A stretch of 64,000 nt of DNA from Candidatus Zhuqueibacterota bacterium (GCA_029262055.1 JAJDAD010000002.1:66791-130790), one strand, 5' to 3'; shown: positions 18,979 to 41,433, numbered from the stretch's first letter. Translations and numbers: made by a program. Notes: a model not told the origin generated them from the sequence alone.

Positions 18979-21900
18979 TTAGCTGAACAGCTCTTCGATA
19001 TCCCGCAAGGTTAGTTGTTTAAACAGGCCCGCACTGCTGGTGATAATGCTCGACACCAGCTCCTTCTTCTTCTCCTGCAAATGCAGGATTTTCTCTTCCA
19101 CAGTGCCCTTGCTGATCATCTTGTAGACAAAAACGTGCTTGTCCTGCCCGATGCGATGACTGCGATCGGTAGCCTGGGCCTCGACCGCCGGGTTCCACCA
19201 GGGATCATAGTGGATGACGTAATCGGCGGACGTCAGGTTTAAGCCCGTACCGCCGGCCTTCAGGCTGACGAGAAAGATCCTGCACGCCTCATCTTTTTGG
19301 AATCGCTCTACACATTCTTTTCGGTTGCGGGTACTGCCGTCAAGATATTCATACGGCGTGCCTTGCGCGTCCAGTTGTTTGCGCACAATGGTTAGCATCT
19401 TGACGAATTGTGAGAACACCAGGACTTTGTGCCCCTCGGCCAGCAATTCTTCGAGATACTGGTTCAACAAGTCAAACTTTTGCACCGGGCCCTTGAAGGA
19501 GTCCTCCACAAGGTGCGGGTGACAGGCCAGCAAGCGCAACTTGACGAGGCCTTCGAGGACGTTCATGCGAGATTTGTTTAAACCGGAATCAGCGATTTGA
19601 TTCAGAACCTGAGCCCGGTAGTAGTCTCGCCACTTGTTGTAAACCTTTTCATGCTGTGGCGCCATCTCCGCGTAAACGATGCTTTCAATTTTGGGCGGCA
19701 GCTCGGGTGCCACTTTTTCTTTCGTGCGGCGCAATAGAAACGGAAAAACCATTTTTTTGAGCAGTTGCGCGGCGGCTTCATCCTGTTCCGCTTCGATCGG
19801 TTTGGCGAATTCGTTCTTAAAATAACTCAAGCTGCCGAGCAGTCCCGGATTTAGAAACGAAAACAAGGACCAAAGCTCGATGGTGTTGTTTTCGATGGGT
19901 GTGCCGGTCAGTGCCAGCCGGTGCCGGGCCTGCAGGACTTTCACGGCCTTGGCGGTTTGCGACAGCGGGTTCTTTATGTTCTGAGATTCATCCAGAATCA
20001 CGTAATCAAACATAACATCCTTGAGGAAGAGGATGTCGCGACGCAAGGTGCCGTAACTGGTCAGCACGATGTCGTAGTCACTATAATTGATGCCGGTGCG
20101 GAGACGATCTGCGCCGGTTTGGTTTAAGACGCGCAAACCGGGTGCGAACCGTTCTATTTCGGCCTGCCAGTTGAAAACCACCGAGGTCGGTGTGATGATG
20201 AGGCTTGGCAAATCGATCTCGTTTTCAACTTGCCACTGCAGAATTGAGAGAGCCTGGACCGTCTTGCCCAGACCCATGTCGTCAGCCAGGCAACCCCCGA
20301 ACCGGTAGTTACGCAAAAAATGCAGCCAATGGTAGCCGGCTTTCTGGTAGTTCCGCAGGTCGGCGGAAAGATTTGCGGGCAGGTCATACTCCGCGATGCC
20401 GTCGAAATCTTTTAACTGTTCCAGCCGCTCTTCAAAGACTGTATCCATGTTTTTTTGGTGAGCAGCGGCAAACAGTTCATCAATCAGAGTTACATGAAAG
20501 CTGGAAAGACGCACCCCGTCCTGACGTTCTTCGCCAAGATTGATCACATGCCGAAAGCGGTCCAGCCATTCCCTCGGCATTTTGCTTACGCTGCCGTCTA
20601 CCAGTCGGACATACTTGCTATTTTTCTTCAGCGCCTTTTTGATTTCCGACAACGAGAGCATGACACCACCGACATCGATTTCCATTTGCAGGTCAAACCA
20701 GTCGATGTTAGATTTGGTGCTTACGCTTATCGAGGCGGAGGCTCTGTTTACTCTGAACCTGGATAAGCTCTCTTCACCGTAAACGGCAAATCCGTTCGAT
20801 ACGAGTTGCGGGATTTCGTCGATGAGCCATTCCAGGGTTTGATTGCTCCTGGTAGTAATGACTCCGGCCTTGGCGGTCTTGACACTGGTGCGCTGCAGGA
20901 GGGCGACCGCCTCGGCTTCACGCTTCTGGTCACGTTGTATTTTGATGAATGTGCTACCGTCTTCGTTACTGCTCCATACGGCCGGTCTTGTATCTCGCGC
21001 CAGAACCTCTACCGGGCCATATCCGAACCGGAGGTCTACTTTGATGCAATCGCCAAACTCTTCGAGGTAGAGGCGCTGTTCGGTGATCTCGCCGATGGTC
21101 TCGGTACCGATACCTTCGGGTACGCGAAAATGTTGCAGCAACTCAGATTGCGCCCCCAGAGAGTTTAGAAATGATGGCATGTCCTTGCGGGGAACCGTCA
21201 CCTTGTAGTTTTTTCTGAGGAAGGGAATCAGGCTTTCAGCATTGTGATCTCCGGCAATGCTGATGATGCTGCTTTCACGCAAAATCCAAACAGGATTGAC
21301 GGTCAGTAAGGTGAACGTGTGGTCGAGGATGTGCTCCGAGTCGTCGAGCAGCAGAAATGGCTGCAGGCGCAAAACGTCTCCTTCACCGAGCATCCGAAAT
21401 TCGATTCTTCCGCTGTTTTCCCCGACCTGGAGCCCGGTGCGTTTTTCCCCGTCCGACAAGTACAGGCGACTGTCTTGCAACATATCGAAAATGACGCCCG
21501 CATCCGCACCATCGACAAATCTGTATTGCACGGGGCGTGGGTCGTAGTAGGCGTTCTGTGAGCCGTTACGGTAAGACTTGTCCAGGTAACTTAGAACCAG
21601 ATTGTCGTGACGGCTGCGGCGCAGGTTGGGATTATTGAAGTCGGTGGTGGCGAGGCCGCGCGGGACTCCCATGCCTCCGTCTTTTTTAGCCAACCGCTTC
21701 TGCGGTTCTATACTCCAACCTTTTTGGCTGGTTCTAAGGACGAAGACCAGGTGCCAGAGACGGTCGTAGGCAGTGACATTTTCTTTTTCAGGTCTGATGC
21801 GCGACAGATAGTTTTGCCAACCTGATTTGATGTCCGCGTCTGCCACCAGGTCTATGCGGCGCCAGTCGATCGCCTCCAGGACTGTTGCTACGATGTGTTT

Positions 21901-22188
21901 GCAGATGCCGTTAAACGGGCAAGTGCACTCGGTATACTTGTAATCATTTTCAAGCCAAATCTCGACGTGGTAGGGGCTGGTTCCGCTTACTTCCGCCTCA
22001 ACAAACTCGGGGGTGATCACTTTGATTTGTACACGGCCTTCTGCGTGGTAGCTCTGGCCGCGCGCAAAAATATGGGGCGCAACAATGGCCCGAATGTCTT
22101 CAACTGCCAGGTTCATCTTGGCGCAAGTCTCCGGTGGTATTGGCAACAGGGCAAACCGGAATATACGACCGTCAATCCAATTGAGCAA
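18979..22188 (-). CDS. SWIM zinc-finger SNF2-family helicase (RapA/HepA-like)
   Basis: SWIM motif CTCPFNGICKHIVATVL. SNF2_N motifs LRNYQKAGYHWL...LADDMGLGKTVQAL and DESQNIKNP. Helicase_C motif RIFLVSLKAGGTGLNLTSADYVIHYDPWWNPAVEAQATDRSHRIGQ. The true start may be the internal MNLAVED at 22116. Confidence 0.85.
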   Translation of the reverse strand: MLNWIDGRIFRFALLPIPPETCAKMNLAVEDIRAIVAPHIFARGQSYHAEGRVQIKVITPEFVEAEVSGTSPYHVEIWLENDYKYTECTCPFNGICKHIVATVLEAIDWRRIDLVADADIKSGWQNYLSRIRPEKENVTAYDRLWHLVFVLRTSQKGWSIEPQKRLAKKDGGMGVPRGLATTDFNNPNLRRSRHDNLVLSYLDKSYRNGSQNAYYDPRPVQYRFVDGADAGVIFDMLQDSRLYLSDGEKRTGLQVGENSGRIEFRMLGEGDVLRLQPFLLLDDSEHILDHTFTLLTVNPVWILRESSIISIAGDHNAESLIPFLRKNYKVTVPRKDMPSFLNSLGAQSELLQHFRVPEGIGTETIGEITEQRLYLEEFGDCIKVDLRFGYGPVEVLARDTRPAVWSSNEDGSTFIKIQRDQKREAEAVALLQRTSVKTAKAGVITTRSNQTLEWLIDEIPQLVSNGFAVYGEESLSRFRVNRASASISVSTKSNIDWFDLQMEIDVGGVMLSLSEIKKALKKNSKYVRLVDGSVSKMPREWLDRFRHVINLGEERQDGVRLSSFHVTLIDELFAAAHQKNMDTVFEERLEQLKDFDGIAEYDLPANLSADLRNYQKAGYHWLHFLRNYRFGGCLADDMGLGKTVQALSILQWQVENEIDLPSLIITPTSVVFNWQAEIERFAPGLRVLNQTGADRLRTGINYSDYDIVLTSYGTLRRDILFLKDVMFDYVILDESQNIKNPLSQTAKAVKVLQARHRLALTGTPIENNTIELWSLFSFLNPGLLGSLSYFKNEFAKPIEAEQDEAAAQLLKKMVFPFLLRRTKEKVAPELPPKIESIVYAEMAPQHEKVYNKWRDYYRAQVLNQIADSGLNKSRMNVLEGLVKLRLLACHPHLVEDSFKGPVQKFDLLNQYLEELLAEGHKVLVFSQFVKMLTIVRKQLDAQGTPYEYLDGSTRNRKECVERFQKDEACRIFLVSLKAGGTGLNLTSADYVIHYDPWWNPAVEAQATDRSHRIGQDKHVFVYKMISKGTVEEKILHLQEKKKELVSSIITSSAGLFKQLTLRDIEELFS

Positions 22189-22408: not shown

Positions 22409-23614
22409 TTAGATGGCGTGTAAATCACGCGGGGACAGGCCGTGGAAACCCAGCCAGGGGAGCAGCCAGTTTCGGAAAAGCCGCGGACGCATGCTGTTCG
22501 ACGCGCGCAACTCTTCGGAAGCCGATAAGAGCTGTCTCAGCCGTTGCAGCGCCTGCGGTCGCGTTGCCGGATGCTTGATTTCACGCGTGCCCTGCAGGAC
22601 CAGCACCAGCGGATTATCCGGACGGGCAGCTTTGGCTTTGGTAAAAGCCTTCTTCGCCTGCTTCGAAAACACTTTGTGGCTTGCGCGATCCAACATAAGC
22701 TCGAAGTGCCTGGCCTGTATTGCATAAACGTTGGCGCGCAACGCGTAGAGATCGGATTCCTCACCCAGTGTTTTTACCGGGAGCCTCTGCCACGCCAGCT
22801 CTGCAAACTGCGAGGCCGTCGCCAGGTGGTCATGGAAATTGCGCGCGGATGAGTTTTGCCACGAAAGAAGGGCAGCGTGACAGTACGCGAATGCGGTCCA
22901 GTATGCGGCTAGCCATTTTTCGGGCTTCTTGTGCGCTATCTTCTCGAACCCTTTTGCAATCTTCAGGCAGTCCTGGTACGAATCCACCCGTTCAATAGCG
23001 GCGATGGCCTCTTGCATTTGTGTGACAAAGTCTTTTTTGGGTCCGATTCCGAGCAGGGGAACGCCTCCTTTAGGCGGGCAATTGCCGCGGCCAAAACCGG
23101 CTACTTTCAGAATACCGCTATTCAGAGCTTCGAGAGTGGCTTTGGTATCGGGAGCGATTCCCGGTGTGGGTGAGAAGGCGCCCACTGCATCTGCCGGCAG
23201 TCGCTGCCGAATAAAATGGAAGCTGGAACGCATTTGGTCCAACATGCTCAGCGACGCCAGAAGAACCTGGTCGCGTTGCGGCGAGGTATTGCCGGTCTCA
23301 GTCCGGCTTTGTCCGTTGGTAGGTGAGGAGTTCGGCTGCAAGATCTCGTCGTCTTCTTCGGAATGCTCAAGATTGGTAAACTTTTCGGAATTCGAGCTTT
23401 TGTCGAACGCGACCTCCTTATGCACTTCCAACTCGAATGCTATCTCATACTCGGTTGGAGATGGCAGACCGGTGATTTTCTCGAATTCAAACCTGCTCAG
23501 GAATGCCGCCAACAGCAAATGCATGCTGATAGAAACCAGTAGTGCCTGCTTGCGCGTAATGCGCAAGGAAGATACTCGGGCCGTCCAGTCGTAGTTGGCT
23601 TTGTTGGGATTCAA
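22409..23614 (-). CDS. Hypothetical membrane-anchored protein, directly upstream of and co-oriented with the SNF2 helicase
   Basis: N-terminal TM ALLVSISMHLLLAAFL. No recognisable domain. A competing antisense ORF (22929-23594 +) is shorter. Confidence 0.4.
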   Translation of the reverse strand: MNPNKANYDWTARVSSLRITRKQALLVSISMHLLLAAFLSRFEFEKITGLPSPTEYEIAFELEVHKEVAFDKSSNSEKFTNLEHSEEDDEILQPNSSPTNGQSRTETGNTSPQRDQVLLASLSMLDQMRSSFHFIRQRLPADAVGAFSPTPGIAPDTKATLEALNSGILKVAGFGRGNCPPKGGVPLLGIGPKKDFVTQMQEAIAAIERVDSYQDCLKIAKGFEKIAHKKPEKWLAAYWTAFAYCHAALLSWQNSSARNFHDHLATASQFAELAWQRLPVKTLGEESDLYALRANVYAIQARHFELMLDRASHKVFSKQAKKAFTKAKAARPDNPLVLVLQGTREIKHPATRPQALQRLRQLLSASEELRASNSMRPRLFRNWLLPWLGFHGLSPRDLHAI

Positions 23615-24007: not shown

Positions 24008-27000
24008 TCAAAACAGCGAGATTTGTGTCTTGTCCGGGTCTTTCTTTTTCTTGATGGCTTTCGCCTGTTCTGCTTTTGTGAGGCTGCGTTCGATGTTGTT
24101 TAGGAATTTCGATCTTGGGGGAGTGAGCGTTTTCCCGAACCGCAGCCGCTTGTTTGCGTGTGTCAGGACAAGCTGCTCCCGGGCGCGGGTCATGCCGACG
24201 TAAAGTAACCTCCGCTCCTCATCTTCGTCAGAGGTAGCTTTCTCACTTTCAAACGGCAGGATACCCTGTTCGCAGCCCACAATAAAGACAACGCCAAACT
24301 CCATTCCTTTGGCCGCGTGCAGAGTCATCAGGGAAACCCGGTCCGCCCTGGGATCGTAATCATCCGTTTCTGAGGTAATGGCGCAGGCGCGCAGAAATCC
24401 TGCCAGGTCTGCACCGAACGGCTTCGCGGCTAAAATAAACCGGCTGAGCGTGCGCGCGGGTTTATCAGCGGCGAAATAGTCGTCCGGATAAAATCCGGCG
24501 ATTGTCCTCACAATGATTTCCGATACCGACAGCGGGACGGTGTTCGTTCTCAAGGCCTTAAGCCGGGTCGAAAACGTCGCGATCGCCGCACGTTGACGCG
24601 TATTCAGGCCTGGGATTTTGGCGACGGTTTGCATGGCCTCCCAGATTCCGGTTGCTTCATGGTGCGCGAAATTCAGCAGTTTTTGCAAAGCCATAGGGCC
24701 GATCCCCAGCCGCGTCTCGGCCAGACGTTGTGCAAGAAGTGTATCGTTGACTTCGCCCACGAGTAACCAAAGCTGCTGTAGCAGTCCTTTGAAGGGTTGG
24801 TTCTGGTAACTCGATTGCCGCCCGATTACCTGATAAGGTATGCCCGAGCGGTCAAATGCTTCCTCCAGCAGCGTGCTTTGAGAATTCAAACGGTAGAGGA
24901 CCGCAAAGTCACGAAATGTGGCCGACGGCAGTGTTTGTCCGCTAACCCGCTCCGAGTCGATGGAAAAATAACTGGTTCCTCCAACCATTTTTTCGATTTG
25001 GTGAACCACATATTCGGCTTCGGCTTTGCCGGTCGGCGCGCTATAGATACTGATTTTTTTTTCGGTGACTATTTGCGACCAGTTGGAATATTCATCGTCT
25101 CGCGCCGTCCGGTTCAGAACCTGGGCGGAGGCCGCCACAATGTTGTGGGCTGAGCGGTAGTTGCGTCCCAACCTGATCATACGTGTGCCCGGAAAGTCCC
25201 TGGCAAAATCCAGAAAATATTGCGGCGTCGCACCCCTGAATCCGTAAATCGCCTGGTCAGGATCGCCGATGGCGCAGAGGTTGGTGTGGTCTCCGCAGAG
25301 AAGTTTCAGGAATCGATATTGTGCGAAATTGACATCCTGGTATTCGTCTACCGATATCCACTTGAAACGTTGCCGGCAAGCCGTCCGAACGCCGGCATGC
25401 TCTTGCAGCAAGCACACGGTCCTGCTAATGAGGTCTTCGAAATCAAGTGCCTGACGCGCACGTAACTCATCTTCATAGCCTTGAAAGTACCCGGAAAAAT
25501 GAGCGGGGGTAGCGAACGTGTTTGATTTCCTCGCCGTCTCCGGACTCAAAAGTGAGCGCTTTGCGGCAGAGATGGCTGCGCTGAGCTCCTGAAGCTCCAC
25601 TTTCGGGATATCTTTGACCAGCGTCCGTAGCAAGCCTAACTTGTCAGCCTCATCGCAAATGGAAAAGATAGGCGGAACATCGATTAGATGGCCGAACTCG
25701 GCAAGAATCCTGATTCCGAGGCTATGAAATGTACAAATGGTTAGCGCTGCGATTTGCTGAGGCTGCAGGGACCGCGTCAGCCGGGCTTGCATTTCTTCTG
25801 CGGCTTTGTTGGTAAATGTGACGGCCAGTATTTCATCCGGGCGCGCGTGGCCCGCGGCGATCAGGCCGACGATTCTATTAGTCAGGGTCCGGGTTTTGCC
25901 GGTGCCGGGACCTGCCACGATCAGGAGTGGACCTGCGGTATGCTTGACCGCCTGCTCCTGTTCGTGGTTATGCATCTCTCCGCCATCGCCTTGCGCGGTT
26001 AACCGCGGTGAATCGGGCATTACTGTTTTAGCTTTCGGAACAGGACGGACGGGAGCCGGTGTGTCGGTTTCGTCCGACACGGCGGCGCTGGCCTGTTTCT
26101 CCATATCTTCCTGTGCCGCCCGCTTTACATTGTCCATGAAGAAACTCAATTGGGTCGTAAACTCTTCTCTCTCAGCCTTTTCAAAGAGCTGGATTTTACC
26201 GAACTCGCCGTCGTATCCCGCGGCTATTTTGATTTCGCCGGCTCGGATGCGTTTGATGCCTTCGGCTACCATGTCACCGGCAAACCTGCTGATGTCGGCG
26301 ATAGCGGCTTCCTGCAAAATATGCAGCTCGGATCCAAGTTTGGACAAAAGGTAGTCAAAACTCTGCCTGACCCGCTTTGAATTAACGCCTACCCCATGAA
26401 TCTCGGATAAGACCTCGGGCAGCGGCACCAGGCTTTGGTAGGGATGCGGAAGTGACGGTATTTGGCCGGGTTCTCTGTCGGCCAGCGCCTCGACGCGGTG
26501 CATAACCCCGACTGTGACTCGCTTGCCACAGTCAGAACAGATGCCGTCGTGCGCAATTGTGGTGCGCGGGTCCCAGCATACCCGGCACTTCCGGTGGCCA
26601 TCGTAATGGTACTTGCCCTCCTCCGGGAAAAATTCGATGGTCCCCAGAAACTTGTCGCGGTCGCCGCTCTTCAAAGCAGAAAAAATCGCGTCGTACGACA
26701 AGTCCGTGTCAAACAGATTCGCCTCCCTCGCTAGTTTCTGTGGTGAATGTGCGTCGGAATTTGACACCAGCGTGTAGCGGTCGAGGATGGAGAGACGTTC
26801 ATTCATTGGCGGGTCCGACGACAGGCCGGTTTCAAGGGCAAAAATCTGGTCGGTTAAGTCGCCGAAGCATTCTTCCACCGAATCAAATCCGGACATGGAA
26901 CCGAGCATTGCGAACCAGGGCGTCCAGATGTGGGCAGGAATCAGATAGCCCTGCGGGTCAGTTTCCAAAACGATTTCGAGCAAATCGCGCGAATCCAGGC

Positions 27001-27421
27001 CGAGAATTGGCCGGCCATCCGACCGGATGTTGCCGATTTTGTCCAGCGTGGACTGGAATTTCTCTAAAGCATCAAACGACGGCATGAAGACGACATTGTG
27101 AATTTTGCGAACCTTGTCGTGGCGTTTGTAAATGTTGCTGATTTCGCCGGCCAGCATGAAACGCACCATGCCGGCGCACGCTTTCGGGACTTCCGGCTGG
27201 GTGACTTTGCTGTACTCCGGCTTTAAACGGAAAAGCCCATCCTCTGCCGGTTCCAGCTTTTCTTGCATCTCCTGCAGCCAGCCCGGATGCGCGATGTCGC
27301 CGGTCCCGACCACATTGACGCCCTTCAGTTGCGCCCATTTGTGCAGATGTTCCAGATTGAGGCTTTTGCTGGTGGCGCGCGAGTAGTAGGAATGGAGGTG
27401 AATGTCTGCTACGATTTTCAT
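24008..27421 (-). CDS. Fusion protein: N-terminal EndoQ-like PHP-domain nuclease with a Zn ribbon, plus a C-terminal UvrD/PcrA-family SF1 helicase
   Basis: N-terminus MKIVADIHLHSYYSRATS...GVNVVGTGDIAHPGW is PHP/EndoQ-like, followed by CRVCWDP...CSDCGK. A Glu-rich linker leads to UvrD motifs LLIVAGPGTGKTRTLTNRI...LAVTFTNKAAEEM and later helicase motifs (TLHAAKGMEFGVVFIVG, VGMTRARE). Confidence 0.8.
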   Translation of the reverse strand: MKIVADIHLHSYYSRATSKSLNLEHLHKWAQLKGVNVVGTGDIAHPGWLQEMQEKLEPAEDGLFRLKPEYSKVTQPEVPKACAGMVRFMLAGEISNIYKRHDKVRKIHNVVFMPSFDALEKFQSTLDKIGNIRSDGRPILGLDSRDLLEIVLETDPQGYLIPAHIWTPWFAMLGSMSGFDSVEECFGDLTDQIFALETGLSSDPPMNERLSILDRYTLVSNSDAHSPQKLAREANLFDTDLSYDAIFSALKSGDRDKFLGTIEFFPEEGKYHYDGHRKCRVCWDPRTTIAHDGICSDCGKRVTVGVMHRVEALADREPGQIPSLPHPYQSLVPLPEVLSEIHGVGVNSKRVRQSFDYLLSKLGSELHILQEAAIADISRFAGDMVAEGIKRIRAGEIKIAAGYDGEFGKIQLFEKAEREEFTTQLSFFMDNVKRAAQEDMEKQASAAVSDETDTPAPVRPVPKAKTVMPDSPRLTAQGDGGEMHNHEQEQAVKHTAGPLLIVAGPGTGKTRTLTNRIVGLIAAGHARPDEILAVTFTNKAAEEMQARLTRSLQPQQIAALTICTFHSLGIRILAEFGHLIDVPPIFSICDEADKLGLLRTLVKDIPKVELQELSAAISAAKRSLLSPETARKSNTFATPAHFSGYFQGYEDELRARQALDFEDLISRTVCLLQEHAGVRTACRQRFKWISVDEYQDVNFAQYRFLKLLCGDHTNLCAIGDPDQAIYGFRGATPQYFLDFARDFPGTRMIRLGRNYRSAHNIVAASAQVLNRTARDDEYSNWSQIVTEKKISIYSAPTGKAEAEYVVHQIEKMVGGTSYFSIDSERVSGQTLPSATFRDFAVLYRLNSQSTLLEEAFDRSGIPYQVIGRQSSYQNQPFKGLLQQLWLLVGEVNDTLLAQRLAETRLGIGPMALQKLLNFAHHEATGIWEAMQTVAKIPGLNTRQRAAIATFSTRLKALRTNTVPLSVSEIIVRTIAGFYPDDYFAADKPARTLSRFILAAKPFGADLAGFLRACAITSETDDYDPRADRVSLMTLHAAKGMEFGVVFIVGCEQGILPFESEKATSDEDEERRLLYVGMTRAREQLVLTHANKRLRFGKTLTPPRSKFLNNIERSLTKAEQAKAIKKKKDPDKTQISLF

Positions 27422-35315: not shown

Positions 35316-36557
35316 ATGAATCAAGATACCCCCATCAAATATTCTGAAGACCTCAGAGAACTAATTGCCAGAATGCCAAAAACCGACCTGCACGTCCATT
35401 TGGATGGCAGCGTTCGCCTGCCGACTCTGATCGAAATTGCGCAGAAGGAGAATATCGATCTGCCCAGCTATACGGTCGAGGGCCTGAACGAACTCGTCTT
35501 CAAAGATGACTACGAAAACCTCGAGGAGTATCTGAAGACTTTTGGTTATTCTTGTGCCGTCATGCAAAAGCCGGAATATTTGGAGCGCATCGCTTACGAA
35601 ATGGCGCAGGACAATCAAAGCGAAGGTGTGCGCTACATGGAAGTCCGCTTTGCGCCGCAACTACACATCAACCAGATTATGGACATGAAGACCGTCATCA
35701 AGCATGTCGATGATGGCCTGGCGCGTGCCCAGCAGGAGTTCAACAACCGCGCGGAAGTCGTGTCCGGCAAGGAGCCGCCCTTCAATTACGGCATCATCAC
35801 ATCGGCCCTGCGCTCGTTTGGCCCGTACTCGGACTACTACGCCAAGTTCATGGACGTGCACGCTTACTCTGATACCAAGACCCTGTTCGCCCTCGGCTCC
35901 CTTGAGTTGGCGCAGGGAGCGGTCAGGGTTCGCGATGAGTTGGGTTTACCCATCGTCGCTTTTGACCTGGCAGGGGCGGAGAAAGGCAACCCGGCCAAGG
36001 ATCACTGGCAGGCGTTTCAGTTTGCGCATGAGAATTTTATGGCTAAGACCGTACACGCCGGCGAGGCCTACGGGCCACCTTCGATTTTTCAGGCCATCAC
36101 CGAGCTGCACGCGGACCGCATCGGACACGGTTACTACCTGTTCGATACCACCAAAGTTGATGACAAGAAAATCGCCGACAAGAAAAAATATGTAGAAGAC
36201 CTGGCCATGTACATCGCTGAGCATCGCGTGACCATCGAAGTCAACCTGACCAGCAATTTACAAACCAATCCCGCTCTCACCAGCCTCAAAGATCATTCCT
36301 TTAAAGAGATGGTCAAACATGATTTGAGCACCTCCATTTGTACCGACAATCGCACCGTCAGCAAGACCAGCGTCACCAACGAGATTATGCTCGCGCTGGC
36401 TAATTTCGAGCTGACGCCGAGGCGGTTGAAAAATATCATCGTTTACGGCTTCAAGCGATCTTTTTTCCCGGATAGCTACTCGCGCAAACGGGAGTACGTG
36501 CGGCGCTGTATCGATTTTTACGAAGAAACGGTGAAGGGGACTGCGCTCGAGGCGTAA
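35316..36557 (+). CDS. Adenosine/AMP deaminase-family protein
   Basis: N-terminal metal-binding signature DLHVHLDGSVR. The length of 413 aa fits the PF00962 family. The stop codon lies 20 bp upstream of the NACHT-DGR target gene. Confidence 0.75.
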   Translation: MNQDTPIKYSEDLRELIARMPKTDLHVHLDGSVRLPTLIEIAQKENIDLPSYTVEGLNELVFKDDYENLEEYLKTFGYSCAVMQKPEYLERIAYEMAQDNQSEGVRYMEVRFAPQLHINQIMDMKTVIKHVDDGLARAQQEFNNRAEVVSGKEPPFNYGIITSALRSFGPYSDYYAKFMDVHAYSDTKTLFALGSLELAQGAVRVRDELGLPIVAFDLAGAEKGNPAKDHWQAFQFAHENFMAKTVHAGEAYGPPSIFQAITELHADRIGHGYYLFDTTKVDDKKIADKKKYVEDLAMYIAEHRVTIEVNLTSNLQTNPALTSLKDHSFKEMVKHDLSTSICTDNRTVSKTSVTNEIMLALANFELTPRRLKNIIVYGFKRSFFPDSYSRKREYVRRCIDFYEETVKGTALEA

Positions 36558-36577: not shown

Positions 36578-39500
36578 ATGGGCAAGCTCTGCATAGGACT
36601 CTTTATCTTTGCGATTGTGTCAGTTCCTCTTTCCACGCTGCTTGCGAGGGAGGGAGGTCAGCAAGCCGACTCCTCTAAGCAACATCGTGCAAGCACAAGC
36701 GTGTCTGCGGATACTTCCTCGAAATCGCCCAAACCACTACCGGCAACTCTCCCTGAAAAATCAAAACAGAACTCAAGCGATGAAACGGACATGAATCAAA
36801 TGATGCCCTGGTTGATTGCCTTGGGTGCATTGGTGTTAGCAGTGTACCAGTACTATCGAAGAAGAACTGATACCAGAGACATGCTCCGTGATGAAATGAG
36901 GGTCAAAGACGAGTTCGAGACAAGTCAGGCGAAAGAGCGAGAGCTGACTGCGGAAGAGAGCTACCGTGCAGCCTTACACAAGGAACTCGGCAGCATAAAA
37001 ATTCTCGGTTCCCCGGACATTGACAGCCTGCCGGTAAGTCTGTTAGACTCGTTTGTCTCGCTTCGCATTTCCGAGACCTGGCGCAATGAATCGCGCTTCG
37101 ATCCCAGGAAGATGGAACGGCAACATGAGGATCGGGACCTTTCTCCGGAGGAGATCCTGCAGCGTGCTTTTCGGCAAGACCGGATGCTGGTGCTCATAGG
37201 CGAACCCGGCTCGGGCAAGACCACCCTCATGAAATTTTATGCCATGACCTGCCTGGAAGGTGGCGGCGGAAGCGCCCTCGGATTCAAGCAAGCTGTGCTG
37301 CCGCTGTACTTACCGTTGCGCGACCTCAAGTTTAAAGAAAAAGAGGATGGGATAGAATCTCTGCCGAATAACCTGGCGGCCAGGGCGGAAAAGCACGTTC
37401 TCGACATCGAGGCAAAGGAATTTTATGACTGGCTGCACAACCGGGAAACACTGGTTCTGCTGGATGGGTTGGACGAAATCAGCGATCTGAAAAAACGCAA
37501 GCAGGTCTGCAAGTGGATAGACAACACTTGCACCGGCCTTACGAAGGCCCGCTTTGTCGTGACCTCACGCTGGACCGGCTATCGCAAGGCAGAGGGCATT
37601 GAGCTGGAAACCGACCACCTGCGGGCGGACGTGCGTGACTTTTCTCGGGACCAGCAAGAGGAGTTTTTACGAAAATGGTTCCGGGCGGTATATCTGCGCG
37701 AGTATAAAGAGAGCGGAAAACCACCAGTCGATTGGCAGGAACGCCAACGTAAAAAGGCCGATCTGCGTGTCGACAAAATTCTTGGCTTCCTGAAAAGGGC
37801 CAGCAACCACAGCCTGCGCGAGCTTGGCGCCACACCAATGCTACTGCAGATCATGGCTATCCTTTGGAAAGAGCGCGACATTTTACCGGAAAGCCGTGCC
37901 TCTCTGTATGCCGCCGCACTAAACTACCTCCTGGTTTTTCGGGACAGGCGCCGAGATCTGGACCCGGTTCTGCCGGTAGACAAAGCTCGGCGCGTACTGT
38001 TGCCGACGGCCCTCTGGATGCAGGCGGAGGTTGGCAAAGATGAGGTGCCGAAAAATGATATGTACGACCAAATGCAACCGAAACTGAACAGCATGGAAGA
38101 GCAGGCTGACGCCGCCGTCTTCTGCCAAAACCTGGTTGACCGGGCTGGGCTGCTGGCAGAGTACGGCGAGGCCGATTATATCTTCCGGCACAAGTCATTT
38201 CGCGAGTATTTAGCCGGCGTGCAGCTCACCAAGGAGGAAAACAAGATAGAGTGGCTGCAGAAATTGATTGACCACTTTGGTGACGACTGGTGGGAAGAAC
38301 CTTTGCGGTTTTTTATAAATGAAGGCGACGACAAGCTGTTTGACGCTTTTATGGACTTATTTTTTACTTCCGAAATGAGTAAAGAGCTTGACCAAAAGCA
38401 GCAGGATTTGTTGCAGACCCTGGTGCGGGAGGCACCACAACGGGAACTAACCGCCCTTGCTCAGTGGCTGAATAAAAACGAAACCAATACCCAGCAGAGA
38501 AGATATATTCTGGAATGCCTTAAGACAATCGGAACTGCTGCAGCACTGGAGGAAGTCGAGAAGTACCTGGACAAGATGTTTACGAGACATGAAAAGCGTC
38601 TAAATAGACCGAGTGTGCAAGAGACTCATCAAGAGGCAAGCAGGCTGGATCCTAACTTCAAGTATGCCACTGAGATTCTTGCTGAATCAGCCAGGCGCAC
38701 GCCGGCGGTTGCCGCCAAAGGCCGGGCTCAAGTCGAGTCATCAGCAACTCTTGCTGATGACCTGTTTAGGAAATTGCCAGCTTCTTTCGTAAATGACCAC
38801 GAACAAAGCGCAGAGTATATCCTCATTCCGCCCGGCGAGTTCAAATTCTCCGTTTCAAAAAACATAGAGCCTGTACCTAATATTTACTTCGCTAAGTATC
38901 CTGTGACCAACAAGCGTTACCGCCGCTTTATCGCATACCTGAGCAACCAGCTTGACGAGCAAAGTGGCCGCCTGCCGACAGACCTGTTTTCTCAAAAGCT
39001 ATCTGAGTTTGCTGCGGGCATCAAGGACTTCACGGATTATCTGGGAACTGACCGAAATGGGTGGGCGAATAAACTACGGTCTGGGTACGATGACAACAAA
39101 CGTTTCAATCACGACGATCAACCCGTTGTCGCTGTAACCTGGTTCGCGGCGCGCGCCTACTGTTTCTGGCTGTCATGCCTGCAAGAGACTGAACTTGACC
39201 ATAAGCTGGAAGATGCAAACAAGCTGGCGAATAACTGTCGTTTGCCAACCGAGTTGGAGTGGGAGTGGGCGGCGGCCGGCCGCGAACGGGATGGCTCTTT
39301 GCGCGACTACCCGTGGCCCAAAGAAGAAGGTTCGCCAACGGACAAGCTGGCGAATTATGGTGGCACTGTTGGCGCCACTACGCCTGTAGGCCGCTACCTC
39401 GAGGGTGCAACTCCGGAAGGGTTGCTGGACATGGCAGGCAACGTTCTTGAGTGGTCGGAAAGCTGGCGCGATGAAGGCAGGAGCCGCCGGGCGCTTCGTG

Positions 39501-39613
39501 GGGGTTCGTGGGGCATTGCTACAGACTTCCTGCGGTGCTCGGCGCGCAACAGCCTCTATCCCGGCGACAGGGACGGCAATGTTGGGTTTCGAGTTGTTCG
39601 GCCCCAGTCCTAA
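36578..39613 (+). CDS. DGR target protein: membrane-anchored NACHT (STAND) NTPase with a C-terminal FGE-sulfatase/C-type-lectin-fold domain that carries the variable region
   Basis: Two N-terminal hydrophobic segments (MGKLCIGLFIFAIVSVPLSTLLA; MMPWLIALGALVLAVYQYY). NACHT Walker A LVLIGEPGSGKTTLMKF and Walker B LVLLDGLDEI. The C-terminus YPVTNKRYRRFIAY...VTWFAARAYCFW...LEWEWAAAG...LRGGSWGIATDFLRCSARNSLYPGDRDGNVGFRVV is FGE-sulfatase-like with an RGGSW-type DGR VR motif. Confidence 0.85.
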   Translation: MGKLCIGLFIFAIVSVPLSTLLAREGGQQADSSKQHRASTSVSADTSSKSPKPLPATLPEKSKQNSSDETDMNQMMPWLIALGALVLAVYQYYRRRTDTRDMLRDEMRVKDEFETSQAKERELTAEESYRAALHKELGSIKILGSPDIDSLPVSLLDSFVSLRISETWRNESRFDPRKMERQHEDRDLSPEEILQRAFRQDRMLVLIGEPGSGKTTLMKFYAMTCLEGGGGSALGFKQAVLPLYLPLRDLKFKEKEDGIESLPNNLAARAEKHVLDIEAKEFYDWLHNRETLVLLDGLDEISDLKKRKQVCKWIDNTCTGLTKARFVVTSRWTGYRKAEGIELETDHLRADVRDFSRDQQEEFLRKWFRAVYLREYKESGKPPVDWQERQRKKADLRVDKILGFLKRASNHSLRELGATPMLLQIMAILWKERDILPESRASLYAAALNYLLVFRDRRRDLDPVLPVDKARRVLLPTALWMQAEVGKDEVPKNDMYDQMQPKLNSMEEQADAAVFCQNLVDRAGLLAEYGEADYIFRHKSFREYLAGVQLTKEENKIEWLQKLIDHFGDDWWEEPLRFFINEGDDKLFDAFMDLFFTSEMSKELDQKQQDLLQTLVREAPQRELTALAQWLNKNETNTQQRRYILECLKTIGTAAALEEVEKYLDKMFTRHEKRLNRPSVQETHQEASRLDPNFKYATEILAESARRTPAVAAKGRAQVESSATLADDLFRKLPASFVNDHEQSAEYILIPPGEFKFSVSKNIEPVPNIYFAKYPVTNKRYRRFIAYLSNQLDEQSGRLPTDLFSQKLSEFAAGIKDFTDYLGTDRNGWANKLRSGYDDNKRFNHDDQPVVAVTWFAARAYCFWLSCLQETELDHKLEDANKLANNCRLPTELEWEWAAAGRERDGSLRDYPWPKEEGSPTDKLANYGGTVGATTPVGRYLEGATPEGLLDMAGNVLEWSESWRDEGRSRRALRGGSWGIATDFLRCSARNSLYPGDRDGNVGFRVVRPQS
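39487..39606 (+). repeat. DGR variable region (VR), 120 bp, the 3' end of the NACHT-FGE gene
   Basis: Identical to the TR at 40076-40195 except for about 16 positions. Every difference corresponds to an adenine in the TR. Confidence 0.9.
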
Positions 39614-39687: not shown

Positions 39688-40047
39688 ATGCCTAAAACCG
39701 AGATGCTCGTTATCAAAAAAGGGTATGATTTCTCGAAATGGCTATTAAATCATACCGGCAAATTTCCAAAGAGCTATCGTTTCAGTGTAGCAGCCAAGCT
39801 CGAAAACGGTATTCTTGATTTCATAGAGGCGACGACTGTAGCCAATATGAGAAGGGATAAGATATCATTCTTAACAAAGGCAGACGAGGCGCTTGCCCGG
39901 CTACGATTGTTGTTCCGGCTTAGTTACGAAATGCGGTTTATCAACCTCAAGTCATACGAATACGGAAGCCGGCAAATGGCGGAACTAGGACGGTTACTCG
40001 GCGGCTGGTTGAAGAATCCCGGTGCCGGTTTCGCAAGAACTAATTGA
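39688..40047 (+). CDS. avd: DGR accessory variability determinant (Avd; four-helix-bundle protein)
   Basis: At 119 aa the sequence MPKTEMLVIKKGYDFSKWLLNHTGKFPKSYRFSVAAKLENGILDFIEA... matches the Avd / 23S-rRNA-IVS protein family. It sits between the target gene and the TR, as in canonical DGRs. The RBS is gaggagg. Confidence 0.8.
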   Translation: MPKTEMLVIKKGYDFSKWLLNHTGKFPKSYRFSVAAKLENGILDFIEATTVANMRRDKISFLTKADEALARLRLLFRLSYEMRFINLKSYEYGSRQMAELGRLLGGWLKNPGAGFARTN

Positions 40048-40075: not shown

Positions 40076-40195
40076 ACCGGGCGCTTCGTGGGGGTTCGTG
40101 GAACAATACTACAGACAACCTGCGGTGCTCGGCGCGCAACAACAACAATCCCGACAACAGGAACAACAATGTTGGGTTTCGAGTTGTTCGGCCCC
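40076..40195 (+). repeat. DGR template repeat (TR), 120 bp
   Basis: ccgggcgcttcgtgggggttcgtggAAcAAtActacagacAAcctg...cgcgcaacAaCAaCaAtcccgAcAacaggAacAAcaatgttgggtttcgagttgttcggcccca. The Asn (AAC) codons sit at the positions that vary in the VR. Confidence 0.9.
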
Positions 40196-40338
40196 AATCA
40201 TGCCCAACCCATGCATCCTTTATGGTGCCCTACCTGATGCCGGATGGTTTCACGGAACCCCGGACTGCTGTACGGGCATGACATGCGGCTCTTGCATCCT
40301 GGGTTTGCTCGCTGCTGAGCCAGCCCGAACATAAACCA

Positions 40339-40382
40339 GGGTGGGTTTCTTTAGTAGGAAGTTTCGGACAAGAAACCCACCC
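40339..40382 (+). other. 13-bp perfect stem-loop (gggtgggtttctt...aagaaacccaccc) between the TR and the RT start codon
   Basis: A perfect inverted repeat 14 nt upstream of the RT ATG. It may be part of the DGR RNA spacer structure. Confidence 0.5.
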
Positions 40383-40395
40383 ATAATTTCGTCAG

Positions 40396-41433
40396 ATGAA
40401 GACCCATAAGCATTTATTCGACAAGATAGTAGCATTTGAGAACTTGCTTGCGGCGGCAAATAAGGCAGCGCTTGGAAAGCGGGAAAAACCATACGTTATC
40501 GAGTTCTTTGCGAAACTGGAAGAGAACCTGTTCCGGCTTCAATCAGAACTTGAACACAAAACTTACTATCCAGGCAGGTACTCAACCTTTCAAATTTACG
40601 AACCTAAACCCAGAATGATCAGCGCTGCCCCATTCCGCGATCGGATTGTGCATCACGCACTAATAAATATTATTGGCACTGGCTTGGAACGCAGTTTCAT
40701 TTTTGATACTTATTCGAATCGACTAGGAAAGGGTACGCACAAAGCTATTCGGCGTTACCAGACTTTCTTGCGGCGAAATAGTTACGTTTTGAAATGTGAT
40801 ATTAAGAAGTACTTCCCATCAATTGATCATGCTATTTTGAAATGTTTACTGAAGAAACGTATTTCTTGTGAGGCCACTCTTTGGCTAATCAACAAGATCA
40901 TCGACTTCAGTAATCCGCAAGATCCCGTTGATGATTACTTCCCGGGCGACACGCTCTTTACGCCTCAAGACCGTAGAAAAGGGCTACCGATCGGAAATTT
41001 GACGAGCCAGTTTTTCGCAAACCTCTACTTGAATCAGCTAGACCATTTTGTCAAGGAGGAGTTGAGGTGCAGAGCGTATGTCAGGTACGTAGACGATTTT
41101 GTTCTCTTTGGTGACTCGAAGCAATGCCTACGGGAATGGCGAGATTCCATAGCTATATTCTTATCTGAGTATCGTTTGAAATTGCACCCAACAAGATGCC
41201 AGATCTACCCTGCTCCGGTTGGTGGAAGATTTCTCGGACAAGTAATTTGGCGAACACATCGTCTCCTACCAGGACAAAATGTCCACCGATTCAAAAGCCG
41301 AGTGCAATCCTGGAGGACCAATCCACCCGAAAATATTGACCAACGCCTTGCTAGTTGGGTAGGTCATGCCTCGCAGGCAAATACTTTTTGCTTATTGAAA
41401 GCACAGGGATTAAGTTTAAAATCAATTGAATAA
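40396..41433 (+). CDS. DGR reverse transcriptase (group-II-intron-like RT)
   Basis: RT motifs: PFRDRIVHHALINII (motifs 1/2), the YxDD box in RAYVRYVDDFVLFGDS, and a thumb region. It sits immediately downstream of the TR. Confidence 0.88.
   Translation: MKTHKHLFDKIVAFENLLAAANKAALGKREKPYVIEFFAKLEENLFRLQSELEHKTYYPGRYSTFQIYEPKPRMISAAPFRDRIVHHALINIIGTGLERSFIFDTYSNRLGKGTHKAIRRYQTFLRRNSYVLKCDIKKYFPSIDHAILKCLLKKRISCEATLWLINKIIDFSNPQDPVDDYFPGDTLFTPQDRRKGLPIGNLTSQFFANLYLNQLDHFVKEELRCRAYVRYVDDFVLFGDSKQCLREWRDSIAIFLSEYRLKLHPTRCQIYPAPVGGRFLGQVIWRTHRLLPGQNVHRFKSRVQSWRTNPPENIDQRLASWVGHASQANTFCLLKAQGLSLKSIE

Follow-up and report, generated by a model that had tools for sequence, protein, structure and literature searches.

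A complete, chromosomal DGR cassette is present in the window (the whole 64-kb stretch of DNA that we analysed), with its parts in the order target, Avd, template region (TR) and reverse transcriptase (RT). The target gene (36578–39613, + strand) encodes a TM-NACHT-CLec protein of 1011 residues, in which N-terminal hydrophobic segments precede a NACHT NTPase and a C-type-lectin-fold (CLec) domain ends the chain. The variable region (VR) of the CLec domain differs from the TR at template adenines only, the same codons are hypervariable in the DGR manner across the family, and the N-terminus of the family is modular. Our best reading makes the target an NLR-like switch that is tethered to the inner membrane, faces the cytoplasm and has a ligand-binding face diversified by the DGR; as such it is a candidate sensor. 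To the whole proposal, in which the ligand would derive from a phage or mobile element and a TM hairpin would deliver the output, we assign a probability of about 0.6. The class of protein, its coupling to DGRs and the idea of an adaptive-like antigen sensor have already been published. The target is a further example, and the locus leaves existing knowledge of the class unchanged.

The cassette and the variable lectin domain

The four parts of the cassette are co-oriented and lie within 4.9 kb, with one intact target. The target ORF starts with ATG, 8–9 nt downstream of the ribosome-binding site AGGAGG, and its coordinates, strand and length are those given in a first-pass annotation made from the sequence alone. 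NCBI and Logan assemblies contain an identical protein. The Avd accessory protein (119 aa; 39688–40047, + strand) matches Pfam bAvd (E = 1.2e-20) and NCBIfam DivGenRetAVD (98.8 bits against an equivalog cutoff of 80). The TR (40077–40202, + strand), located by repeat comparison with the VR, is rich in AAY and has 32 adenines, and adenine mutagenesis of it can reach no stop codon. An RNA fold of 40190–40400 placed a 13-bp perfect stem-loop in the TR–RT spacer (40339–40382, + strand), just upstream of the RT start. The RT itself (345 aa; 40396–41433, + strand) is identified by Pfam RVT_1 (E = 4e-20), the PADLOC RT model (2.4e-45) and two motifs in its translation, the catalytic YVDD and IGNLTSQ, the latter of which we take to be typical of, and diagnostic for, DGR enzymes. 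Related loci carry RTs of 60–65% identity at the same position. Promoter and terminator scans returned nothing above shuffles, and Rfam gave no matches in the 64-kb window.

Pfam assigns residues 746–1008 (38813–39601, + strand) to the FGE-sulfatase family, a C-type-lectin fold (E = 3.3e-37). This domain and the NACHT domain are matched in one ORF, and the fusion of the two that the first-pass annotation described is real; a STAND NTPase joined to a C-terminal FGS/CLec DGR target is the arrangement of the STAND-FGS/DGR class. The VR (residues 971–1011; 39487–39612, + strand), recognized as a direct repeat of the TR, contains 17 diversifiable codons and lies in this domain at the 3′ end of the gene, in a C-type-lectin fold as expected of a DGR target and as the annotation had it. 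Between 39487 and 39609 there are 16 mismatches to the TR, all at TR adenines, and a 17th at 39612 (TCC against TCA) is also at a TR adenine. Over 126 nt, then, 17 of 17 differences fall on adenines and none on other bases; with 32 A in 126 nt the chance of this is about 0.25^17, or roughly 1e-10. An identical, GC-rich block of 30 nt (39577–39606) near the 3′ end of the repeat is followed by divergence. A search for a hairpin downstream of the VR gave nothing significant (z = −0.67). On both strands of the 64-kb window there was no further VR, and no second copy of the NACHT or CLec domain was found there.

The target shares an FGE-type/C-type-lectin fold and a C-terminal VR with DGR variable proteins of solved structure, namely TvpA of Treponema denticola (PDB 2y3c), Mtd (1yu0) and TaqVP (5vf4). 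Their scaffold motifs RGGSW ... R ... P ... GFR recur in the target, where the variable residues are interleaved with them. Those three are stand-alone surface or phage-tail binding proteins, whereas in the target the fold forms the C-terminal domain of a predicted cytoplasmic NTPase switch. Unlike them, the target has an extra helical insertion at about residues 778–900 in the AF2 model. The homology, together with the near-maximal entropy at these sites, suggests that the VR residues lie on an exposed face.

The fold invites the question of whether the domain is an active FGE- or EgtB-like enzyme instead of a binding module. Source annotation names it a 'SUMF1/EgtB/PvdO family nonheme iron enzyme' or a 'formylglycine-generating enzyme', the best fold matches are EgtB, PvdO and ToxD, and the FGE-sulfatase fold is indeed there. 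We nevertheless give an enzymatic role hardly any credence. The catalytic cysteine pair of FGE (Cys336/Cys341 in the human enzyme) presumably sits in the loop after GGS[YW]; in the target the stretch that follows GGSW (residues 979–984) is shorter, free of Cys, templated as N-N-T-T-D-N and hypervariable across the family. Every NCBIfam model of an enzyme scores far below its cutoff.

The NACHT module and probable membrane attachment

Homology of the target to NACHT/STAND NTPases, claimed at first pass, is solid, resting on a Pfam match, conserved motifs and fold comparison. The NACHT core spans residues 202–370 (37181–37687, + strand; PF05729, E = 4e-16, 59.7 bits against a cutoff of 26.7). 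The Walker A motif GEPGSGKTT (residues 208–216; 37199–37225, + strand) and the Walker B motif LVLLDGLDEI (residues 292–301; 37448–37480, + strand) can both be read in the translation just as they had been quoted. The former conforms to GxxGxGK[ST], with Gly211, Gly213 and Lys214 invariant in 116 relatives; the equivalent lysine is essential in bNACHT01 (Kibby et al., 2022/2023). The latter contains D[GAS]hDE, the Walker B part of the NACHT definition quoted by Kibby et al., as Asp296-Gly297-Leu298-Asp299-Glu300, of which Asp296, Gly297 and Glu300 are invariant in the same 116 sequences. The TSR sensor-1 (Arg331) is invariant in them or nearly so. We expect the NTPase to be catalytically competent.

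Residues 371–735 (37688–38782, + strand) form NACHT-associated helical and winged-helix domains and helical repeats according to AF2 and Foldseek, with pLDDT mostly above 90; the full-length model has a pLDDT of 82.7. A winged-helix histidine motif, FRHKSFRE (His538; 38183–38212, + strand), stands out in the conservation, with Arg537, His538, Lys539 and Glu543 invariant in the 116 relatives. The top Foldseek matches to the full-length model are NLRC4, NOD2 and NLRP3 (E = 2.5e-11 to 1e-9), aligned over about 585 columns of their NACHT modules. The NBD-HD1-WHD-HD2 arrangement of these animal NLRs is the best structural match, and it includes the ADP-contacting histidine motif of the WHD. The sequence identity is 13–18%, and where animal NLRs have an LRR sensor and a CARD/PYD N-terminus, the target has a lectin-fold candidate sensor and a putative membrane hairpin. 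The NLR relationship emerged from the fold search alone; a profile search of PDB sequences (E ≤ 0.01) returned FGE-type chains and no NACHT chain.

Pfam detects no domain N-terminal to the NACHT, where the target has a TM hairpin and a stalk only. Two TM segments had been predicted ahead of the NTPase at first pass. Two hydrophobic segments are there, the first strong and the second weaker, and for both the TM label is a call based on hydropathy. Segment 1 (residues 4–22; 36587–36643, + strand) reaches a KD value of 2.45 in a 19-residue window; it is modelled by AF2 at low pLDDT with no helix, and it could equally be a cleaved Sec signal peptide or a TM helix. A low-complexity loop rich in S/T/P/K follows (residues 23–75; 36644–36802, + strand), which is predicted to be periplasmic; the pLDDT of residues 1–75 in the AF2 model is below 50. 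Segment 2 (residues 76–93; 36803–36856, + strand), the putative TM anchor, scores 1.74 in a 17-residue window and about 1.42 in the 19-residue window, below the cut of 1.5 that applies there. It opens a continuous 47-residue helix (76–122) in the AF2 model, is retained in the family consensus as W...L.AL..L.F.IYQY..R and runs into YQYYRRR. The remainder of the helix (residues 94–122; 36857–36943, + strand) is a highly charged stalk that would lead from the membrane to the NACHT domain.

We place the NACHT and CLec domains in the cytoplasm because of the positive-inside rule and the NTP requirement. By hand count the net charge of the loop at 23–75 is about 0, against +3 with the RRR motif after segment 2. 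Segment 2 and RRR would act as a stop-transfer signal, and therefore the C-terminus should be inside whether or not segment 1 is cleaved. Display of the CLec domain in the periplasm or on the surface would follow the pattern of most cellular DGR targets, for which Roux et al. (2021) describe an N-terminal signal peptide or TM segment and extracellular substrates as the likely ligands; segment 1 resembles a signal peptide, and periplasmic NACHT and CLec domains were predicted for one PB-PSB1 target (Doré et al., 2024; PMC10907252). We judge such a display very improbable here, since it conflicts with the stop-transfer signal, with the basic cluster on the C-terminal side of the segment in the consensus of single-TM relatives and with an NTPase that has invariant catalytic residues and needs cytoplasmic NTP.

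Of 120 homologues, 108 have at least one hydrophobic segment at the N-terminus and 81 have at least two, as counted by a hydropathy scan in which a single segment is sometimes divided into overlapping peaks. Most family members keep such membrane segments. The few close relatives that have no TM segment carry SEFIR/TIR, DUF4062, HTH or ParA at the same N-terminal position, which in NLR-like proteins is occupied by effector or adaptor modules (Kibby et al., 2022/2023; Kaur et al., 2021).

Diversification in the family and at this locus

The family comprises more than 1197 database matches and 295 loci in species-representative genomes, a set that left out the window's own genome. The locus in the window and those related to it belong to KSB1, Calditrichota, Aminicenantes, Chlorobiaceae, Sedimentisphaerales and comparable lineages. 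Across the family the signatures of mutagenic retrohoming are clear. The same 17 codons are hypervariable and have the amino-acid repertoire expected from adenine mutagenesis: entropy lies at 3.0–3.6 bits in 15 of the 17 codons with a TR adenine, with codons 998 and 1010 lower at about 2 bits, whereas the scaffold residues interleaved with them in the VR do not exceed 1.5 bits. Mutagenesis of AAY cannot yield Lys, Glu, Gln, Met or Trp; at the 11 positions templated by AAY these five account for 1.4% of residues, compared with 33.6% at other high-entropy positions. In close orthologue pairs the mismatch density of the VR is about 3- to 10-fold that of the rest of the domain. Avd or RT occurs in the same order at 23 of 76 related loci, and many VR/TR pairs at related loci differ purely at adenines. 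One of these DGRs has a remote target about 75 kb from the TR on the same contig, with 18 of 18 mismatches at A, and multiple diversified paralogues in a genome can be served by one DGR.

At the locus in the window no ongoing diversification is visible in assemblies or protein collection. Three independent assemblies have zero nucleotide differences over 9–15 kb, VR included. No VR variant of the target occurs in a collection of 15 billion proteins, where the 90% clusters of the target and of the RT have a single member each. Consensus assemblies hide minority variants.

These data raise the prospect that the DGR is a recently silenced relic with a frozen VR, and that the target works as an ordinary, non-variable NACHT-CLec protein. 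The identity of the three assemblies and the single-member clusters are what would be expected of a relic, as is the lack of a hairpin downstream of the VR. We consider this decidedly unlikely. RT, Avd and TR are each intact and retain their conserved motifs, the divergence between related loci is concentrated in the VR, and the masking of minority variants blunts the comparison of assemblies. There has been no drift between VR and TR since the last retrohoming, because non-adenine differences are absent over the 126 nt.

Related systems, a candidate mechanism and its genomic setting

Conflict systems in which a STAND NTPase (NACHT or nSTAND1) is fused to an FGE-type lectin and coupled to a DGR were described by Kaur, Burroughs, Iyer & Aravind (eLife, 2021; PMC8195603) and Kibby et al. 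(2022/2023) took them up under the name 'FGS antigen-receptor type' for bacterial NACHT proteins. In the parts of the Kaur paper that cover them, these systems resemble ours in the central NACHT, the single C-terminal FGS/CLec domain, the modular N-terminus of the family, an RT and a four-helix accessory protein beside the gene or elsewhere in the genome, and several paralogues per genome. The N-terminal modules named in those parts are EADs, TIR, DRHyd, caspase, trypsin, kinase and FHA, with a plain TM hairpin absent from them, whereas the TM version is dominant here (about 90% of the 120 closest relatives). The targets of DGR 3 of Thiohalocapsa sp. PB-PSB1 and of DGR clade 5D include TM-NACHT-CLec proteins (Doré et al., PNAS, 2024; PMC10907252). 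Like ours, they combine a diversified CLec domain with a NACHT domain and have annotated TM segments; there are one or two per cassette, and remote ones too, and antigen sensing was the role proposed for them. Attention was drawn to those systems in multicellular bacteria, and the lineages here are not known as multicellular; the comparison made is one of architecture. The bNACHT and Avs proteins, STAND proteins with experimentally validated antiviral activity, are built on the same three-part plan, in which an N-terminal output module, a central STAND NTPase and a C-terminal sensor follow one another. Unlike that of the target, their sensors are germline-encoded short domains or helical repeats with no retroelement diversification. 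The view taken at first pass, that DGR-STAND pairings have been described and are functionally unexplored, agrees with Kaur et al. (2021), Kibby et al. (2022/2023) and Doré et al. (2024); in the literature searched we found neither functional data on a DGR-coupled NACHT-FGS protein nor a report of phage protection by a DGR-coupled NACHT.

In the mechanism that we propose, the RT would make cDNA from TR RNA, with errors specific to adenines, and this cDNA would replace the final 126 nt of the target gene. Retrohoming would re-randomize 17 codons, giving about 10^16.5 possible proteins with no reachable stop, and the variable residues would be carried on the ligand-binding face of the CLec domain. 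The protein would have an N-terminal membrane hairpin, or a signal peptide plus anchor, followed by the charged helical stalk, and its NACHT and CLec domains would be tethered to the inner face of the membrane in the cytoplasm. The variable face would bind a ligand, most plausibly one that belongs to an invading phage or mobile element, and binding would relieve autoinhibition, leading to nucleotide exchange and oligomerization of the NACHT. This may in turn cluster the stalks and TM hairpins as the output, by membrane perturbation or signalling.

The membrane hairpin may itself be the output module. We suggest, tentatively and with well below even odds, that hairpin and stalk are the death or output effector of a self-contained receptor, in a family found mainly in uncultured lineages not known to be multicellular. 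Ligand-triggered oligomerization would then bundle pre-inserted helices into a membrane-disrupting assembly, with a logic analogous to that of CC-NLR resistosomes or of CBASS/Pycsar TM effectors. If so, a single polypeptide would be a receptor of somatically diversified specificity. The TM-NACHT-CLec family, with one DGR per genome acting in cis and in trans, would be found mainly in KSB1, Calditrichota, Aminicenantes and Chlorobiaceae, and such a spread would weaken the link that has been proposed between multicellularity and NLR-like sensors diversified by DGRs.

Nothing in bacteria comes closer than the DGR-coupled NACHT-lectin proteins to a receptor with an NLR-type switch wired to a binding site that targeted hypermutation rewrites. 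The family is easy to align and provides a clean map of natural variation at 17 positions, and the natural exchange of TM segments for TIR/SEFIR, DUF4062, HTH or ParA points to the location of the output module. We regard the locus as a reasonable candidate for heterologous reconstitution because it is compact, has one intact target and belongs to an alignable family with such N-terminal swaps.

The cassette lies between pabB-like, Mo-oxidoreductase and adenosine deaminase genes upstream and TolC-like, polyprenyl synthase, HPr and PtsI genes downstream. Since these immediate neighbours are housekeeping genes, it is not embedded in a defence island. Defence models on the target gave no family-level match: those of PADLOC matched at the level of the P-loop only, with E of 1e-3 or weaker, and the NCBIfam antiphage models EruA and DS8 scored 33.8 bits (cutoff 1000) and 21.6 bits (cutoff 790). 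The setting and the lack of a matching defence family would suit the same architecture without anti-phage sensing, in which the variable CLec binds self, kin-derived or metabolic ligands and the NACHT tunes signalling or kin recognition. Analogous roles have been suggested for regulatory proteins that carry DGR targets in cyanobacteria and for the HET NLRs of fungi, kin recognition was raised as an alternative by Doré et al. (PMC10907252), and the HTH or ParA N-termini of some close relatives look regulatory, not lethal. This is a serious alternative that we nonetheless think unlikely: the TIR/SEFIR and DUF4062 domains of other relatives are typical immune effectors, and a genome with multiple diversified paralogues served by one DGR is more in keeping with an arms-race receptor repertoire than with one regulatory input.

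More than 9 kb upstream there are helicase-type, defence-like genes; their matches are generic, and we did not retain them as a defence-island context for the cassette. We also considered the adenosine deaminase, whose gene ends 20 nt before the target and which matches a PADLOC CARF_ADA-like model (2e-36), as a partner effector. It was rejected, as it scores near housekeeping adenosine deaminase equivalogs and is beside none of the 76 related loci. The host is an uncultured bacterium of the FCB group, with candidate division KSB1 and Calditrichota as its closest named relatives, as judged by homologues of PtsI only.

The retroelement cassette

A direct repeat of 123 nt links the 3' end of the target gene (39487–39609) to a downstream copy at 40077–40199, and all 16 differences between the two lie at adenines of the downstream copy, the template region (TR). 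A 17th difference at 39612 (TCC versus TCA) extends the pair to 126 nt, giving a variable region (VR) at 39487–39612 and a TR at 40077–40202. With 32 adenines per 126 nt of TR, we calculate a probability of about 1e-10 that 17 of 17 differences would fall on adenines by chance; over the 126 nt there are no differences at non-adenine bases. An Avd gene of 119 aa (39688–40047, +; NCBIfam DivGenRetAVD, 98.8 bits against a cutoff of 80; Pfam bAvd, 1.2e-20) lies between VR and TR, and a reverse transcriptase (RT) of 345 aa (40396–41433, +; RVT_1, 4e-20) with YVDD and IGNLTSQ motifs lies 3' of the TR. Since target, Avd, TR and RT are all present in that order and co-oriented within 4.9 kb, the cassette is complete and the locus is a diversity-generating retroelement (DGR).

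The TR contains 17 diversifiable codons, 11 of which are AAY, so that about 10^16.5 protein variants are theoretically attainable and stop codons are unreachable. The window yielded neither a further VR nor a second copy of NACHT or CLec, and no hairpin was found 3' of the VR. A perfect 13-bp stem-loop (GGGTGGGTTTCTT...AAGAAACCCACCC; 40339–40382, +) in the TR–RT spacer stops 13 nt short of the RT start codon and may belong to the DGR RNA; taken whole, the spacer folds only marginally better than its shuffles (z = -1.96).

Over 9–15 kb, VR included, no difference separates the window from three independent assemblies (SRR15505513-15). At 90% clustering the target and the RT each form a cluster of one member, so the locus gives no sign of current diversification. 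The possibility that the element is an old relic is argued against by the strict confinement of VR/TR differences to adenines together with the intact RT, Avd and TR.

The target protein

The target gene (36578–39613, +) encodes 1011 residues, with an AGGAGG ribosome-binding site ahead of its ATG. The first-pass annotation had described this ORF as carrying two hydrophobic stretches, a NACHT NTPase with Walker A and Walker B motifs and a VR inside a C-terminal FGE-sulfatase/CLec domain. The ORF list and translation, hydropathy (on which the transmembrane, or TM, call is based) and Pfam bear out this description, with the VR at the 3' end of the gene.

Pfam places NACHT at residues 202–370 (E = 4e-16; 59.7 bits, gathering score 26.7), and the motifs GEPGSGKTT (Walker A, 208–216) and LVLLDGLDEI (Walker B) are read directly in the translation. 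The motifs containing Lys214 of Walker A, D296-G-L-D-E300, Arg331 of the TSR sensor 1 and His538 of the winged-helix FRHKSFRE are invariant or nearly so in 116 aligned relatives; D[GAS]hDE is the NACHT-specific signature in the definition quoted in Kibby et al. NLRC4, NOD2 and NLRP3 were the best Foldseek matches to a full-length AlphaFold model (E = 2.5e-11 to 1e-9, about 585 aligned columns); a sequence-profile search of the PDB found no NACHT chain. The target is a NACHT protein.

Segment 1 (residues 4–22) is strongly hydrophobic and is followed by a low-complexity, S/T/P/K-rich stretch with no net charge (residues 23–75). Segment 2 (residues 76–93) has a KD value of 1.74 over 17 residues, or about 1.42 over 19 by our own arithmetic, and directly precedes YYRRR and a highly charged helix. 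In the AlphaFold model, for which the 116 relatives formed the input alignment (mean pLDDT 82.7, pTM 0.78), residues 1–75 are unmodelled (pLDDT <50), and residues 76–122 form a single continuous helix that runs into the confidently folded NACHT module. Segment 1 could be either a TM helix or a cleaved signal peptide. In either case NACHT and CLec should be cytoplasmic, since segment 2 has its basic cluster on the C-terminal side and since an NTPase whose catalytic residues are invariant has to function in the cytoplasm.

The FGE-sulfatase match covers residues 746–1008 (E = 3.3e-37). In FGE the catalytic cysteine pair lies in the stretch after GGSW. In the target this stretch is shorter than in FGE, has no cysteine and is templated as N-N-T-T-D-N, so the domain is best regarded as a binding scaffold and not an enzyme. 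Identity as an FGE-type enzyme was rejected on the Cys-free segment, despite the source annotation 'SUMF1/EgtB/PvdO family enzyme'.

The C-terminus of TvpA, the Treponema denticola DGR variable protein (PDB 2y3c), aligns position by position with the target VR, with RVLRGGSW-AGSADY-CAVGER-VNIS-P-GVRCSD-LGFRLA opposite it. This homology, the alternation of variable sites with invariant hydrophobic or structural scaffold residues (Gly975, Gly976, Trp978, Leu985, Cys987, Arg990, Pro995, Gly1003, Phe1004 and Arg1005) and the near-maximal entropy tolerated at the variable sites suggest that the variable residues form a single exposed face.

A large and hypervariable family

A search of a 5.8-billion-cluster protein collection gave more than 1197 matches to the target, the best 120 of which share 44–60% identity over about 90–100% of its length and all combine NACHT with FGE-sulfatase. 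When one genome per species was scanned, 295 relatives turned up, and 76 of these loci were retained. They derive from Chlorobiaceae MAGs, in which several paralogues often share a genome, from Aminicenantes (at least five in one MAG) and from KSB1, Calditrichaceae, Sedimentisphaerales, Pirellulales, Melioribacteraceae and others. Freshwater Chlorobiaceae MAGs (loci L018 and L059; also L034, L057 and L058) hold several TM-NACHT-CLec paralogues per genome, with up to four CLec copies in 22 kb.

Avd and/or RT, in the order target–Avd–TR–RT and often with a second target after these, accompany 23 of the 76 loci; 32, each with 3 kb or more of sequence available downstream, lack a cassette, and 21 are uninformative. 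At five loci from Aminicenantes, KSB1, Acidobacteria and unclassified-bacterium MAGs (L011, L012, L013, L028 and L031), Avd and targets are present and the RT is seen only as tblastn fragments of 30–114 aa, which may be degraded, frameshifted or an assembly artefact. VR/TR pairs with pure or near-pure adenine mismatches are frequent among the related loci, trans pairs included. The L059 VR, for example, pairs with the L018 TR about 75 kb away on the same contig (SZXV01000002.1, Chlorobium sp. L227-S-6D), with 18 of 18 mismatches at adenines. Since one TR matches the VRs of targets tens of kilobases off, a single DGR appears to serve a distributed receptor repertoire in Chlorobiaceae MAGs.

Entropy across the 116 aligned relatives is 3.0–3.6 bits at 15 of the 17 TR-adenine codons and about 2 bits at codons 998 and 1010, with interleaved scaffold positions at 0–1.5 bits. 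Lys, Glu, Gln, Met and Trp, the five residues not attainable from AAY through adenine substitution, account for 1.4% of 1265 residues at the 11 AAY positions; at other positions of high entropy in these proteins their share is 33.6%. Tyr (17%), Asp, Asn and Ser are commonest at the AAY positions (116 relatives; residues 979–1001 of the target). This composition, which resembles that of antibody CDRs, reads as a direct footprint of adenine mutagenesis. In four near-orthologous pairs the VR mismatch density is about three- to tenfold that of the rest of the domain. The entropy pattern, the AAY residue bias and the VR-concentrated mismatches together indicate that the footprint of DGR diversification is present across the whole family.

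Output module, published systems and genomic setting

A hydropathy scan placed at least one hydrophobic segment before Walker A in 108 of the closest 120 relatives and at least two in 81, the latter count being approximate since a single segment is at times scored as overlapping peaks. Four of the 12 relatives with no segment are apparently N-terminally truncated. N-termini scanned among the segment-less relatives carry SEFIR/TIR (P0083), DUF4062 (P0102), HTH (P0078 and P0112) or a ParA-like ATPase (P0027), with nothing recognizable in the other two of these seven (P0079 and P0104). P0094 has an HTH too; in P0070 an AAA_35 module precedes the TM segments, which are kept. The family N-terminus is thus modular. 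This position is the effector or adaptor slot of NLR-like proteins (Kibby et al.; Kaur et al., 2021, PMC8195603), and it is mainly because the swaps occupy that slot that the TM hairpin (both segments) and stalk (residues 94–122) would be an output module and not a mere tether.

Our preferred reading, with a probability of roughly 0.6, is that the target is a membrane-tethered NLR-like switch facing the cytoplasm, in which the DGR-diversified lectin face would sense a ligand and the N-terminal membrane module would act as output. We regard the architecture as close to certain; ligand class, oligomerization and effector role we infer. The earlier interpretation as a DGR-diversified, membrane-anchored NACHT is supported, the DGR and NACHT evidence confirming the underlying observation.

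Kaur et al. (2021; PMC8195603) describe a widespread 'STAND NTPase-FGS combination' with NACHT, MNS or nSTAND1 cores, variable EADs or effectors at the N-terminus and a frequently associated DGR RT and four-helix accessory protein, adjacent or elsewhere in the genome; they propose analogues of hypermutating vertebrate antigen receptors. Kibby et al. treat the 'FGS domain type' as one antigen-receptor-type sensor among bacterial NACHT proteins and mention diversification by DGRs. Doré et al. (2024; PMC10907252) report that such targets, some of them with TM, NACHT and CLec, diversify naturally in Thiohalocapsa PB-PSB1; they discuss cytoplasmic versus periplasmic placement and state that CLec-STAND proteins are experimentally uncharacterized. 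A 2026 preprint on bacterial STAND sensors lists FGE-sulfatase-like sensors; 'DGR' and 'retroelement' are absent from its text. The literature searched held no functional work on any DGR-coupled NACHT, and Kaur et al., Kibby et al. and Doré et al. agree with the first-pass remark that DGR-STAND pairings are described yet functionally unexplored.

The target locus fits this published class and adds a member to it. Membership of a curated antiphage family was rejected with PADLOC and NCBIfam models. It is modestly new that the plain TM hairpin is the dominant form in a very large subfamily, and that this subfamily lies mostly in lineages not known as multicellular, a spread that may be in tension with the multicellularity emphasis of earlier papers.

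The host is probably an uncultured FCB-group bacterium: a T9SS C-terminal sorting domain (Por_Secre_tail) on an FG-GAP repeat protein (3–2012, +) is consistent with this, and PtsI, 5 kb downstream, shares 66–70% identity with proteins under the names candidate division KSB1 and Calditrichaeota, pointing to KSB1/Calditrichota. The cassette is flanked by housekeeping genes, with pabB-like, Mo-oxidoreductase and adenosine deaminase genes upstream and TolC-like, polyprenyl synthase, HPr, PtsI, IMPase, MetK and AhcY genes downstream. The adenosine deaminase (413 aa; 35316–36557, +), which matches Pfam in two stretches separated by an insertion and the PADLOC CARF_ADA-like model at 2e-36, ends 20 nt before the target. 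This adjacency looks incidental since none of the 76 related loci has an adenosine deaminase beside it. The closest relative (53% identity) has other neighbours and no cassette nearby.

Elsewhere in the window are an SNF2 helicase with a bacterial SNF2_assoc domain (18979–22188, -; generic DpdE/ZorD-like matches) and a UvrD-like helicase whose N-terminal extension of about 480 aa is unannotated (24008–27421, -; generic GajB/RTasHel-like matches). Pfam gave no match for the ORF of 401 aa that separates the two (22409–23614) or for the one of 562 aa flanking them (17289–18977). An ORF of 1658 aa (5967–10943, +) carries both an SF1 helicase (AAA_11/AAA_12) and an MTES_1575 restriction-endonuclease-like domain and matches PDC-S37 (4e-59), Mokosh MkoC/MkoA and Hhe in PADLOC. 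The segment in which this ORF lies (about 6001–10000) has a GC content of 43–45% versus about 53% elsewhere, and the ORF may be a defence gene gained by horizontal transfer.
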